From positions 1-59,276 of the IMG/VR virus record IMGVR_UViG_3300030118_002680: a stretch of DNA of 59,276 nt; one strand, 5' to 3'. Source of the DNA: a virus (taxonomy: Duplodnaviria; Caudoviricetes). Under the pieces are notes generated by a model, which saw nothing but the letters and a program-made list of their open reading frames with translations, did no database searches and was not told where the DNA came from. Positions 2,908 through 6,297 of this stretch are shown here, in pieces (position 1 is the stretch's first letter; every line of letters begins with the position of its first letter). The translations under genes and the position numbers were made by a program.

Positions 2908-3114
2908 TTATCGTTTGAATAAATCTATATTAGCTCGTGCTAGTTCGTTTCCTTCAGCAATCATCTGTACTTTCTTGTATCTCTTTGCTGCGTTCTTCAT
3001 ATCTGCTAACTCAGTAATACCCATTCTAGGTGAAGGAGCCATATTGATTAGCCTACCGTCTTTTACTTCATACCCTTGCATTGAAGGAGGAATGTTAAAT
3101 CTACTGTGTGCCAT
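2908..3114 (-). CDS. Hypothetical protein
   Basis: 68-aa ORF with TATCTTTG upstream and a terminator downstream. Confidence 0.65.
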   Translation of the reverse strand: MAHSRFNIPPSMQGYEVKDGRLINMAPSPRMGITELADMKNAAKRYKKVQMIAEGNELARANIDLFKR

Positions 3115-3136
3115 GACTATTAATTTTATATATATA

Positions 3137-3144
3137 CAAAGATA
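3137..3144 (-). promoter_or_regulatory. -7 promoter element TATCTTTG
   Basis: Consensus TAnnTTTG upstream of ORF 2908-3114. Confidence 0.6.
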
Positions 3145-3232
3145 GAAAATTTTATTTAGATACTTAGGGCTTTCGGGTTATATGTATGTGTCACAACAAT
3201 GTGCGCTGCAGGAAACACAAAAAATTTTGTAT

Positions 3233-3403
3233 GGGGGGGGTCGTCTTCTGTTGGTGCATGTCTGATTTTTTTAGCTTTTTCTCATGCGTATGTGTGCGTA
3301 TGTGTGCATGCGTCATGCGTTGCGTGTGCGATTCAGGTCAGGACTCCGTGCATGCGTGCATAATGCGTGTGTGTACGCACCTACCTGCATGTGTGCGTGT
3401 ACT
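3233..3403. repeat. G8 run followed by an alternating purine-pyrimidine tract (TGCGTG/CATGCG)
   Basis: gggggggg at 3233-3240; catgcgtatgtgtgcgtatgtgtgcatgcg... across 3283-3403. Confidence 0.7.
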
Positions 3404-3548
3404 GAACAGAAAATTTAGACAATAACCTTCCCTCGTTAGTACCTGTAGCCAAGGATATATATATAAACAAAACTTAGTAATCGCATTGTTAATAACTCGC
3501 TGAAAATCAAAATTTTACTCTGTTGAGGAAAAAAAGTTATTAACAAAG

Positions 3549-3579
3549 TTTGGAAATTCGAAATATTAAACTACCTTTG
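3549..3579 (+). promoter_or_regulatory. First early promoter TTTG-N19-TACCTTTG
   Basis: Bacteroidota consensus directly upstream of ORF 3612. Confidence 0.75.
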
Positions 3580-3611
3580 AACAAATATTAATCAAAAAAA
3601 ACACAAAAATT

Positions 3612-3800
3612 ATGAAAAATTTAATCAATTCAACAGAAGTAAACGTAGTTTCTAACTCTATTACAGAACAAGCGCAAATGCAGTTCGCTCTCGAAGACAA
3701 GCTTGAGAGAGATTTTCACTCAGGGTTCATCTCTGAAGAAGAGTACAACGAAGGGTTACAGGGAATCTTCAGAAGGTTTCAAGATATCTACGGCTTCTAG
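3612..3800 (+). CDS. Early hypothetical protein
   Basis: 62-aa ORF after the promoter with an A-rich leader. Confidence 0.65.
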   Translation: MKNLINSTEVNVVSNSITEQAQMQFALEDKLERDFHSGFISEEEYNEGLQGIFRRFQDIYGF

Positions 3801-3821
3801 AGTACAGGGGACTATGTCCCC

Positions 3822-3872
3822 TCTGTCGAGAGATGTGTGTCTCTCCTGATGAGTCCCAAAGGACGAAACAGA
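3822..3872 (+). ncRNA. Type III hammerhead ribozyme
   Basis: Core CUGAUGA (3846-3852) and GAAA (3865-3868); GUC triplet 3825-3827; stem I gagaga/tctctc, stem II gtcc/ggac and stem III tctgt/acaga are all perfectly paired. Confidence 0.93.
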
Positions 3873-3901
3873 AAATTAACTTAAATTAAAAATTTAAAAT
3901 T

Positions 3902-4840
3902 ATGAGTACAAACAAGAATGCAGTTCTCAAGAAAGTAAAAGCCACGCTTCTCGAAGGACTTAAGAAAGACGGCTTGAAGTGGTTCAAACCTTGGAAATCA
4001 GGAGAGAATCACCCAATCAATAACAAATCAGGTAGAGCTTATCGAGGATTCAATACCTTCATCCTTAACTATCAGATGGTGCAAGAAGGTTATGACCACA
4101 ACGAATGGGATACCTTCAAGAGCATATCTGCTAGAGGTGGTAAAGTCCTGAAGGGTCAGAGAGGAACAGATATATTCTTTTGGTTAATATCATATTGCTC
4201 GAAGGAAAACTTCGGAACTTGGTACAGAACGAAAGCAGAGTGTATGAAGAAGGAAAATTGTAACGAAGATGATATCTTCACAAATTTTGACCTGAGATAC
4301 TACAGAGTATGGAACATTGGACAATGCGAAGGTTTGAAACCTCTGAGAAAATTAGGTGAGACGAAAGAAGTAAAGCCTATCGAAAGCTGTGAAAAAATCG
4401 TAGCGAAGTACAAGAAGATAGCTAAGAAGTTAACCTTCAAGGATGTTGAGCAGGACAGAGCTTACTACTCTCCTTCGAAGGATATGATAGTGATGCCGTT
4501 GATGACTCAGTTCGATTCAGAAGATAAATATTATCACACTCTGTTTCATGAGATGGTTCACTCAACAGGTCATGACTCGAGGTTGAACAGAGAAGGAGTT
4601 GCTACAGCATATCAGTTAAATAAAACCAAGCATGATTATGCCTTCGAGGAACTGATTGCAGAGTCAGGAGCTATGGTGTTATCAGGTATTGCAGGAATCA
4701 ACACAGATGACGAAGATAAGCAGAGTCAAGCTTACGTCAACGGATGGGTCAAAGCAGTTGAGAAAGCTGATGAGAAAGCCATCGTATCAGCTCTAACGCA
4801 GTCGGCTAAGGCTACTGATTACATCCTCGGTAACAAATAA
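3902..4840 (+). CDS. ardC: ArdC-family antirestriction protein (ssDNA-binding N-domain + zincin-like metallopeptidase)
   Basis: W.KPW, P.N..SGR.Y.G.N, GGKVLKG, AYYSP..D.I.MP, HEMVHSTGH..RLNR, YAFEELIAE. Confidence 0.9.
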   Translation: MSTNKNAVLKKVKATLLEGLKKDGLKWFKPWKSGENHPINNKSGRAYRGFNTFILNYQMVQEGYDHNEWDTFKSISARGGKVLKGQRGTDIFFWLISYCSKENFGTWYRTKAECMKKENCNEDDIFTNFDLRYYRVWNIGQCEGLKPLRKLGETKEVKPIESCEKIVAKYKKIAKKLTFKDVEQDRAYYSPSKDMIVMPLMTQFDSEDKYYHTLFHEMVHSTGHDSRLNREGVATAYQLNKTKHDYAFEELIAESGAMVLSGIAGINTDDEDKQSQAYVNGWVKAVEKADEKAIVSALTQSAKATDYILGNK

Positions 4841-4850
4841 ACCGAGGATA

Positions 4851-4896
4851 TTCGAGAATGGTTGCAGGGTGGTTCGATTCCACCCCTCGAAGCTAA
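4851..4896 (+). ncRNA. tRNA-like mini element 1 (acceptor + T-arm)
   Basis: ttcgag/ctcgaa stacked on gggtgg-TTCGATT-ccaccc (12 bp total); 10-nt linker aatggttgca; followed by G-CTAA. Confidence 0.7.
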
Positions 4897-4916
4897 TTTT
4901 AAATATATATATAACT

Positions 4917-5348
4917 ATGAAAAACACACACAAAATCAAAGCTATGAACGCACTCAGAAAGTTAGGAATAACTTGTAAGGAGTCAGAAGTTTATGACCAC
5001 CAAGGTAACGACCTGAGAACTGAAGGATTATTGTTTTGGATTGACAACGAGAGCAACGTAGAAACAGAGTACCATCTTGAAGGAGGTCAATGGGGTAATC
5101 CTACCGAGACATTTGAGCAGGTTTGCGAGGAGTTTAATCTGTTCGTGGAGCCATTCAACTCAGCTATATATTTAGTTTATCTAGATGACATTCCTGAGCC
5201 AACGGAAGTACCTGCAGATGTACTAGCCTTAGATTCAGATTGTCATGCGATAGACAGATGCGATTTCTGTGGCAGTCATGAAGTAACTTATCATCAGTAC
5301 ATAGGTGATTCATACTGCTCGGATTGTGGCGAATGGCAATCAGAGTAA
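4917..5348 (+). CDS. Hypothetical protein with C-terminal Zn ribbon
   Basis: CDFC...CSDC; start reassigned to ATG 4917. Confidence 0.7.
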   Translation: MKNTHKIKAMNALRKLGITCKESEVYDHQGNDLRTEGLLFWIDNESNVETEYHLEGGQWGNPTETFEQVCEEFNLFVEPFNSAIYLVYLDDIPEPTEVPADVLALDSDCHAIDRCDFCGSHEVTYHQYIGDSYCSDCGEWQSE

Positions 5349-5382
5349 ACGAAAAAAGTTTAACCTGTTGGGCAAAAAAAGA

Positions 5383-5414
5383 TTTGCATATGTCGTTTTT
5401 TTGTCGTATGTTTG
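5383..5414 (+). promoter_or_regulatory. Early promoter TTTG-N20-TATGTTTG
   Basis: Both consensus elements; TGTCG repeats in and after the spacer. Confidence 0.75.
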
Positions 5415-5434
5415 TCGAAATTCTGTTGCATAAT

Positions 5435-5507
5435 CGTGGGGAGTCGGTCTAATTTAGGGACTCGAAAACCCTAAAAAAGAAGGTTCAATTCCTTCCCCCA
5501 CAACTAA
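5435..5507 (+). ncRNA. tRNA-like element 2 (no D-stem)
   Basis: gtgggg/ccccac acceptor, D-loop-like agtcggt, tttaggg/ccctaaa arm with loop a-CT-CGA-AA-a, T-arm gaagg-TTCAATT-ccttc, then A-CTAA. Confidence 0.7.
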
Positions 5508-5524
5508 CTTAAACACTATATAAC

Positions 5525-5647
5525 ATGAGAAAATTAATTTCAAAATTATCAATCGAGAACGTAATCACTTACGGAGTAATGGCTTTTGTATTATCGTCTT
5601 GGACGGCATTAGTATACCACATCATCGTAACAGGTAATACTATATAA
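5525..5647 (+). CDS. Small membrane protein (40 aa)
   Basis: Hand-translated MRKLISKLSIENVITYGVMAFVLSSWTALVYHIIVTGNTI; one hydrophobic helix; abuts the next ORF. Confidence 0.6.
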   Translation: MRKLISKLSIENVITYGVMAFVLSSWTALVYHIIVTGNTI

Positions 5648-5648
5648 T

Positions 5649-5915
5649 ATGAAAGGAAGAGGTTGGTTAAACGACACCACTTACAGAGATTTCCCATTCA
5701 ATTATATGGGAAACTCTGCAGGTGAAGAACTAAGCTACTACGATAGGCTAGCTAGTTATATAAAACACAATGAGCTACTCAACGAAGAGCAAACCTTCGA
5801 GCTACTCAGTAGAATTGAAATGTTTATTGAGCAAGAGATTGAAGAGATAAAAGCTGAAGACCAAAGTGAGTGGAGCAGTTCAATTGTTTGGGAGAAAAAA
5901 GATTTTAATAAATAA
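5649..5915 (+). CDS. Acidic hypothetical protein
   Basis: ORF track; tight operon packing. Confidence 0.65.
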   Translation: MKGRGWLNDTTYRDFPFNYMGNSAGEELSYYDRLASYIKHNELLNEEQTFELLSRIEMFIEQEIEEIKAEDQSEWSSSIVWEKKDFNK

Positions 5916-5925
5916 ATATATATAT

Positions 5926-6297
5926 ATGGCGAAAACACACATAGGAACTTCGGTTCCAAAGGATAAGGAAATCAAGCATTATATATTTGATTGCCTTGGT
6001 ACAGCCGATGGATACGAAATCGGTTGGCTACACGAGAAAGATGACGACAATATCAGCGACCCTGATTCAGAATTATTCTATGATAAATATGGGATGATGG
6101 ACGTAGCGAGGGAGCTGATACTTGAAGGACATGACTTCACTAACTATTGGTTAGATGAGGAGGACATAGAAGAATGGGAAGCTGAGAGAGATAAGTGTGA
6201 GGAATGCGATGGTGAAGGGACAATCATATCCCCCACCTACGATGACCCTTACCATGAGGTGCCATGTCCTGAGTGTTCTTGTGGGCATGATATATAA
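5926..6297 (+). CDS. Acidic protein with DnaJ-type Zn-finger motif
   Basis: CEECDGEG...PCPEC; start reassigned to ATG 5926. Confidence 0.65.
   Translation: MAKTHIGTSVPKDKEIKHYIFDCLGTADGYEIGWLHEKDDDNISDPDSELFYDKYGMMDVARELILEGHDFTNYWLDEEDIEEWEAERDKCEECDGEGTIISPTYDDPYHEVPCPECSCGHDI

Follow-up and report, generated by a model that had tools for sequence, protein, structure and literature searches.

The 59,276-base IMG/VR virus record IMGVR_UViG_3300030118_002680 (from an uncultured marine phage and in its whole length referred to here as the window; G+C content 36%, estimated completeness 98%) carries a complete type III hammerhead ribozyme at positions 3822-3872, in the spacer between a small gene, ORF62, and ardC, a predicted anti-restriction gene. 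The same element stands at the same spot in five other phages, with compensatory changes in all three stems. We consider it likely that the ribozyme is active between ORF62 and ardC in a transcript that probably starts from one promoter at about 3549-3579, and that self-cleavage after C3827 uncouples ardC from the gene preceding it.

Identification and anatomy of the ribozyme

Stem III is formed by UCUGU (3822-3826) and ACAGA (3868-3872), which make five Watson-Crick pairs, the U16.1-A15.1 pair (U3826-A3868) among them. Stem I joins GAGAGA (3828-3833) to UCUCUC (3840-3845) in six pairs closed by the loop UGUGUG, and stem II joins GUCC (3853-3856) to GGAC (3861-3864) in four pairs closed by the loop CAAA. 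The conserved core consists of CUGAUGA (3846-3852), in which G3848 is G5, and GAAA (3865-3868); the cleavage triplet is GUC, with C3827 as C17. All 15 stem pairs are Watson-Crick, the core consensus is complete, and stems I and II are capped while stem III is open. An earlier sequence-only reading of this DNA had described a complete type III hammerhead with its core and three Watson-Crick stems, a cut after C3827, a 74-nucleotide (nt) leader (3828-3901), and G5 at G3848; these positions are all correct from the sequence, and the identification is borne out by the Rfam family RF00008 and by covariance model R1, as described below.

A search with RF00008 (Hammerhead_3), which the sequence-only reading had suggested as a check, aligned the model to 3820-3874 over model positions 1-54 of 54 with a score of 48.5 bits, exactly the gathering cut-off (48.5). 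The E-value was 5.4e-10 for a 251-nt query and 1.3e-7 for the whole window against all 4227 Rfam families, and the genome search flagged the match as over the cut-off. By the gathering criterion the match is borderline—that is, the default gathering run with fast filters omitted the hammerhead, which surfaced under permissive filters. Loop II, with 4 nt compared with 8 in the Rfam consensus, lowers the score. The hammerhead is the sole Rfam match at E ≤ 0.1 in the 59-kb window, and the sole ribozyme match there. Because the viroid-trained Rfam model misses short-loop and inserted variants, the covariance model R1 was built from relatives. Indeed, an Rfam E-value scan of the ArdC relatives L002-L009 gave no hammerhead at E ≤ 1, although four are present there. 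R1 scored 3822-3872 at 77.2 bits, with the runner-up place in the window reaching 13.7 bits (E 0.17, filters off), and a descriptor scan of both strands of the window found one site, again 3822-3872. The match is well beyond chance expectation.

The features of the unit, with the evidence on which each rests, are as follows.

3549..3579, plus strand: candidate promoter of the rightward unit, with TTTG (3549-3552), a 19-nt spacer and TACCTTTG (3572-3579); motif match
3612..3800, plus strand: ORF62, coding for a small protein of 62 amino acids, first gene of the unit; open reading frame (ORF) list, conserved in relatives
3807..3821, plus strand: GC-rich hairpin GGGGAC-UAU-GUCCCC with zero gap to stem III; sequence, pair probabilities, covariation
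3822..3872, plus strand: type III hammerhead ribozyme, predicted cut C3827/G3828; Rfam RF00008, R1, descriptor scan, covariation
3873..3901, plus strand: spacer from the ribozyme to the ardC start, 29 nt, A/U-rich and without a Shine-Dalgarno sequence; position and composition
3902..4840, plus strand: ardC, with an ArdC-N domain and a zincin-like metallopeptidase domain containing HExxH; Pfam, PHROG

The intergenic spacer that holds the hammerhead is 101 nt long and separates two plus-strand genes, with the stop of ORF62 at 3800 and the ATG of ardC at 3902. By domain content, the gene at 3902-4840 is ardC, as the sequence-only reading had named it, and its anti-restriction activity is predicted. 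The Pfam domain ArdcN (PF08401) was matched at 4.8e-20 (72.4 bits, cut-off 22.6) and the C-terminal zincin MPTase-PolyVal (PF18818) at 2.5e-28 (99.1 bits, cut-off 27.5), and the product matches PHROG 7245, "anti-restriction protein", at 4.3e-59. Furthermore, H216, E217, and H220 of the HExxH motif are invariant in nine relatives.

Conservation of the hammerhead before ardC

Forty ArdC loci of viral contigs, each with 700-nt flanks, were surveyed with R1 (filters off) and, at E ≤ 0.05, with all Rfam families. In five of the 40 (L133/L002, L134/L003, L135/L004, L136, and L143), the ardC start is preceded by a hammerhead whose end lies no more than about 55 nt away; ArdC of these five is 94-54% identical to that of the window. 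All hammerhead loci are found among the 11 closest ArdC relatives (at least 49% identity), with none among the 29 more distant loci; the survey of hammerheads before ardC that the earlier reading had proposed is positive within this close group alone. Even there, close relatives such as L138-L142 have no hammerhead. In L136, ardC has hammerheads on both sides, in L137/L005 the hammerhead lies only just after ardC, and L134/L003 carries an additional one 250 nt farther upstream. No other ribozyme class was found in the 40 loci with all Rfam families at E ≤ 0.05. The tie of the hammerhead to ardC is limited to one lineage, and the element is no general ardC companion.

Comparison of these loci showed compensated changes in every helix. 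Stem III is UCUGU/ACAGA in the window, CCGGU/ACCGG in L004, and CCUGU/ACAGG in L136 and L143; stem I changes, for example, from GAGAGA/UCUCUC to GAGAGC/GCUCUC, and stem II from GUCC/GGAC to GACUC/GAGUC. Thus, the element is under selection at the ardC spot in one phage clade.

One further candidate, an R1 match at L163 335-375 (18.9 bits, E 0.008), was left uncounted, as stem I is lacking. It has CUGAUGA, a 3-base-pair (bp) stem II, GAAA, and the stem III CUAGU/ACUAG, with only 8 nt at the place of stem I. This core lies about 330 nt 5′ of a distant ardC and may be a decayed copy or a chance match.

The wider family of phage hammerheads

A pattern fixing only stem III and the core was found at at least 119 viral-contig loci. 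Among the matches listed, with the window, L002, and L003 counted, stems I (at least 4 bp) and II (at least 2 bp) are also present in 115 of 129; the 14 failures of this stem test are mostly long matches within coding sequence. The listed matches comprise 81 unique ribozymes in 98 non-identical instances, to which the counts given below for listed hammerheads refer. Sixteen of the listed hammerheads have the exact architecture of the window element, and in all 16 the stems covary with loop I held to UG(U/A)GU(G/A) and loop II to NAAA. A figure of 100% paired for this set is circular, because the filter itself demanded pairing. The constancy of the loops fits a contact between loop I and loop II like that of natural fast hammerheads, with which the sequence-only reading had called the two loops compatible; the pattern of constant loops and covarying stems does not in itself prove the contact.

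R1 was also run over 95 sources, namely the window, L002-L005, L131, and 89 non-duplicate pattern loci passing the descriptor; at E ≤ 0.001 there were 158 matches. The best 150 of the 158 (128 distinct sequences) were aligned by fitting to the model, and in this alignment 97.8% of cells are paired, compared with 67.0% in shuffles and at most 48.7% with partners slid. Both sides change in 13 of the 15 pairs across the 128 distinct hammerheads, again in an alignment fitted to the R1 model.

The hammerheads often occur in more than one copy. At least two (2-5) were found in 35 of 91 sources, with a spacing of 255-3741 nt in all but one case, and the whole records of five related phages carry 1-3 each (two in G002 and three in G005). 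Their position relative to genes is also regular. An ATG-initiated ORF of at least 40 codons starts within 130 nt after the ribozyme in 87 of the 98 listed instances, and 72 of these 87 ORFs begin 16-40 nt after it. In the 73 listed instances with an ORF start within 40 nt, the spacers average 80% A+T, and 27 of the 73 contain a Shine-Dalgarno-like motif. The downstream genes are mostly small, and their proteins are mixed and mostly without a Pfam family, with 3 of the 87 being ArdC and 6 of the 87 DUF2201_N; PHROGs agree. Given this mixture and the rarity of hammerheads at ArdC loci, there is no special tie between hammerhead and ardC.

Two variant forms recur among the 81 unique listed hammerheads. 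An extra U lies between A9 and stem II (CUGAUGA-U-GAC...) in 31 of the 81, examples being L002 2541-2594, L021, L059, and L111. In 8 of the 81, an A/A or U/U opposition at 10.1/11.1 is followed by two or three pairs, as in L003 2927-2975 directly before ardC. Each form turns up repeatedly in combination with differing stem I sequences, so both are probably variants that are tolerated.

A hammerhead was also found in a cultured phage. Flavobacterium phage vB_FspP_elemoB_14-3B carries an unannotated type III hammerhead on the minus strand at NC_062741.1 19026-19078 (L131 1501-1553, minus strand), with an R1 score of 32.1 bits (E 8.7e-7), the cleavage site GUA, and the core CUGAAGA. Its place is a divergent region, where it stands 17 nt ahead of gp62; this gene opens a series of small leftward genes.

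The hairpin adjoining stem III

The GC-rich hairpin at 3807-3821, with pair probabilities of 0.94-0.98, directly abuts stem III. In the relatives, its arms are GGGGGC/GCCCCC (L002), GGGAGC/GCUCCC (L004), GGGGUC/GACCCC (L003), GGGGCA/UGUCCC (L136), and GGGGAC/GUUCCC (L143); near ardC the hairpin always takes the form GGGGNN-loop-NNCCCC with covarying inner pairs. A strict hairpin, defined as having 6 bp or more, 4 or more of them GC pairs, and as ending 0-1 nt before stem III, was found in 33 of the 98 listed instances, in 27 distinct sequences, compared with a mean of 0.15 and a maximum of 2 in shuffled flanks. With a looser definition the figures were 53 of the 98 listed instances and 22.9 in shuffles. 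Among the listed hammerheads the hairpin mostly accompanies leaders without a Shine-Dalgarno sequence (22 versus 3). The hairpin at 3807-3821 was not called as a terminator in the terminator scan because it has no T-run. Competition between the hairpin arms and the stem II arms, suggested by the similarity of GGGGAC and GUCC, was considered and rejected: no such pair exceeds a probability of 0.01, and the similarity is absent in L002, L004, and L136.

The role of this hairpin may be to shield the 3′ end that the cut creates, or it may form a stack with stem III. A tentative extension of this idea, possible rather than probable, is that hairpin and hammerhead form one portable cassette for mRNA punctuation, needing no host RNase, in phages of Flavobacteriia type without Shine-Dalgarno sequences. 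In such a cassette the hairpin would cap the upstream 3′ end or would stack on the weak stem III and stabilise it, and the recurrence of the cassette beside ardA and ardC would reflect selection for insulated, immediate anti-defence expression.

Proposed mechanism

ORF62 and ardC would be transcribed together from a promoter near 3549-3579. In the nascent RNA, the hairpin at 3807-3821 would fold first and stems I and II next; once the 3′ strand of stem III (3868-3872) had been made, the core would assemble and the RNA would cut itself after C3827. The upstream product would end in the hairpin and a 6-nt tail with a 2′,3′-cyclic phosphate. The downstream product would be the ardC mRNA, with a 5′-OH at the base of stem I and a fixed 74-nt leader, the last 29 nt of which are A/U-rich and predicted to be unstructured. 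The hammerhead would thus act as a "punctuation mark" in the mRNA without a host RNase, uncoupling ardC from ORF62 and giving it a 5′ end independent of context.

The uncoupling from the first gene had already been proposed in the sequence-only reading. A cut would have this effect because a conserved ORF and a promoter-like motif lie upstream on the same strand; that part of the proposal stands, and cleavage itself is predicted. The ORF62 protein (...EEEY..GLQGIF...YGF) is conserved directly 5′ of the hairpin and hammerhead in L002, L004, L136, and L143. The promoter-like motif lies 40 nt 5′ of the ORF62 ATG and resembles the Bacteroidota −33/−7 promoter type. The same AAGTTTGGA...AACTAnnTTTGAAC block recurs in L002 and L136, 37-51 nt 5′ of the homologous ORF, and in L143, where it stands 11 nt ahead of the first ATG; L004 lacks it. 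The candidate promoter rests on its position and conservation because the window-wide count of the combined motif, 9 compared with 6.2 in shuffles, is not above chance.

Evidence against and alternative explanations

Several observations weigh against uncoupling by an active ribozyme. The candidate promoter is a motif match only, and between 2200 and 6600 a scan returned 11 sigma-70 promoter sites (14.3 in shuffles) and 4 terminator sites (2.5 in shuffles), nothing above chance. There is a single hammerhead in the window, with none after ardC, and so does not have its genes flanked by several copies. With the window added to the 40 surveyed loci, 35 of 41 ArdC loci have no hammerhead before ardC and 6 have one; in the more distant relatives L005-L008, a conserved block CTTGACTCGTAT...TAGATTTGTA resembling a Bacteroidota-type promoter lies about 30-60 nt 5′ of ardC, with no hammerhead before the gene. 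A new 5′ end before ardC would then come from a promoter in one clade and possibly from a ribozyme in the other. Whether a 5′-OH stabilises the message, as the sequence-only reading had proposed, or destabilises it depends on the host RNases. When 3801-3905 is folded, pair probabilities reach at least 0.94 in the hairpin and in stems I and II but only about 0.05 in stem III, the nearest-neighbour model preferring a CUG/CAG mini-helix; the hammerhead secondary structure lies 3.4 kcal/mol above the minimum free energy. The minimum-free-energy structure of the 376-nt transcript breaks stem I, with the centroid retaining the hairpin and stems I and II. In these models stem III is the weak point of the hammerhead. 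However, because the models ignore the tertiary core, the folding results are no strong argument against activity. Finally, the assembled contigs of three RNA libraries, each with a small share, showed no ends, joints, or pile-ups on the window; they include a 203-nt contig (X2, depth 3.4) that is identical to 3706-3908 and crosses the cleavage site uncut. This contig may be DNA carry-over or an uncleaved precursor, and it neither shows nor excludes cleavage.

The dependence on host RNases is the basis of a different outcome, in which the ribozyme is active and its cleavage lowers ardC expression, the 5′-OH being a handle for 5′-exonucleases as in glmS and ardC being expressed briefly after entry. 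RNase J1 takes part in the decay of glmS mRNA. In a review, glmS self-cleavage is described as leading to degradation by cellular RNases and to lower expression (PMC6765202). For the window element we regard such an outcome as unlikely: the fixed distance of 16-40 nt before many different genes is more in keeping with a general-purpose expression cassette than with a decay signal, and the constitutive destruction of an anti-restriction message seems wasteful. After the cut, moreover, the 5′ end would be the first base of the 6-7 bp stem I hairpin, and a 5′-terminal hairpin generally hinders 5′-end-dependent nucleases. The low stem III probability and the uncut contig also bear on a slightly less likely alternative, that of a conditional ribozyme, in which the weak 5-bp stem III, the competing mini-helices, and the hairpin place cleavage under the control of temperature, Mg2+, a protein, or the passage of ribosomes along ORF62, with the ratio of coupled to uncoupled ardC being regulated. 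The hairpin can gain one pair (A3806-U3822), which would intrude on stem III, and regulated cleavage has been suggested for some phage hammerheads (PMC3088659). Against this, the core is all consensus, no conserved alternative structure was found, and the similarity between hairpin and stem II arms is missing from the three relatives named above.

A reading in which the motif does nothing for the phage, being either a chance match or a passenger that is decaying or selfish, is very improbable. The single copy in the window and the close ArdC relatives without a hammerhead would agree with it, and the function of bacterial and phage hammerheads is still called elusive (PMC6765202). The window-wide Rfam E-value of 1.3e-7, the constrained distance to the start codon, and the compensatory changes in three stems at the same spot in five other phages, with ArdC identity down to 54%, all argue against it. 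The faintest prospect is that the cluster of hairpins has its role in the DNA itself, perhaps as a single-strand-DNA promoter. Against this, the genome is tailed-phage-like and has no single-stranded entry, the hairpins have a mere 4-6 bp, the unpaired letters that are conserved coincide exactly with the hammerhead core, and the strand-specific covariance-model scores fit a ribozyme. Self-cleavage that uncouples ardC remains the reading we prefer.

Comparison with known systems

Among the closest known systems are the hammerheads of prophages, which stand on either side of one gene or of a short block of genes and cleave both in vitro and in E. coli (PMC3088659, Perreault et al. 2011). In A. 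tumefaciens ardA is flanked by a triple hammerhead arrangement, in three Legionella strains a hammerhead immediately precedes ardA, and the processing of long phage transcripts has been proposed as the hammerhead role (PMC3088659). Like these, the window element is intergenic, co-oriented with the genes, near the next start codon, and beside an anti-restriction gene, with the same proposed role; unlike them, it is a single copy, though its relatives carry 2-5 copies flanking single genes, and the gene is ardC rather than ardA (PMC3088659). A hairpin before stem III was not found in the text of that paper, supplements excepted, when searched for hairpin, terminator, and stem-loop. HHphage, of haloviruses HF1 and HF2, lies 13 nt before the start of the helicase, an early gene, and a mapped 5′ end is within 3 nt of the cleavage site (PMC3088659). 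Both it and the window element stand close before a start codon; HHphage, in contrast, has an atypical core insertion, a salt dependence, and an archaeal host, whereas the window core is consensus. With glmS, the window element shares a self-cleaving RNA (here with predicted cleavage) in the 5′ region of an mRNA, the cut of which sets the fate of the message; glmS, however, needs a metabolite cofactor and its cleavage lowers expression, whereas the window element has no ligand pocket or gene-specific link (PMC6765202). The role of the thousands of bacterial and phage hammerheads was still called elusive in this 2019 review. No paper linking hammerheads with ArdC was found in a search that left published lists of ribozyme-associated genes outside its range.

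Other parallels are in the way of working. Classic type III hammerheads are viroid or satellite RNAs. Compared with RF00008 (clan CL00010), the window element shares the consensus core, helix topology, GUC triplet, and a threshold score, and differs in being encoded by phage DNA, in lying in an mRNA spacer, and in having a GC hairpin adjoining stem III. In the T7 early transcript, which includes an anti-restriction gene, host RNase III cuts between cistrons to leave 5′-phosphate ends and a protective hairpin at the upstream 3′ end; the window RNA would work alike, but would cut itself and leave a 5′-OH and a 2′,3′-cyclic phosphate. RiboJ-type insulators are engineered hammerheads of the 5′ untranslated region that remove upstream RNA and give a fixed leader, with an extra hairpin downstream. 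The window element would work in a similar way, and differs in being natural and in having its extra hairpin upstream.

The window element is an ordinary example of a well-known type of phage element, the anatomy given in the sequence-only reading being right and the functional account, as judged from sequence, plausible. It offers a clean consensus-core example within an uncomplicated unit of two genes, in which the small ORF is followed by hairpin, ribozyme, and ardC, and which is conserved in at least six phages. It also places a second anti-restriction family, ardC after ardA, beside hammerheads, and adds a measurable regularity, namely the adjoining hairpin together with a start codon at a fixed distance of 16-40 nt. 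In addition, the elemoB_14-3B hammerhead makes the processing hypothesis testable in a real phage-host pair. The known picture is sharpened rather than changed.

Genome setting and further observations

Pfam and PHROG scans of ORF62 and its eight neighbours gave no function, ORF62 being without a family in either, and blastn of 3000-6000 against GenBank phages gave no match. A GroEL-like chaperonin is encoded on the minus strand at 689-2284 (Pfam Cpn60_TCP1, 1.8e-55). Its best GenBank matches are an uncultured 60.8-kb phage (57%), followed by the approximately 60-kb Flavobacterium "elemo" phages (36.7% identity); the former, MW202828.1, the closest GenBank relative by chaperonin, had no R1 match. 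A host among the Bacteroidota (Flavobacteriia) fits the A/U-rich leaders without Shine-Dalgarno sequences, these chaperonin matches, and the TAGATTTG promoter-like motifs before ardC in L005-L008. A location of ardC at the genome's leading end was considered and discarded, since the L002 record begins at what is window position 1286, inside the chaperonin gene, so that record coordinates are arbitrary.

A tRNA scan found no tRNA in the window, and the hammerhead is thus not in a tRNA-processing context. The closest relative, L002 (ArdC 94%), has a tRNA gene (62.9 bits) at 4940-5013, some 1.4 kb beyond ardC, and next to it a weak YrlA-like match farther on.

Where the leftward genes and ORF62 diverge, the DNA between them is of low complexity at window positions 3186-3425 and 2660-2700. 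It includes GT/GC-rich imperfect repeats with TGCGTG/TGTGTGCGT runs at about 3270-3400, which create a spurious "ORF" of 79 amino acids, and it also has one (CT)n run as well as runs of (TA)n near 2667-2690 and 3455-3465. A replication origin or a regulatory region could be located here.

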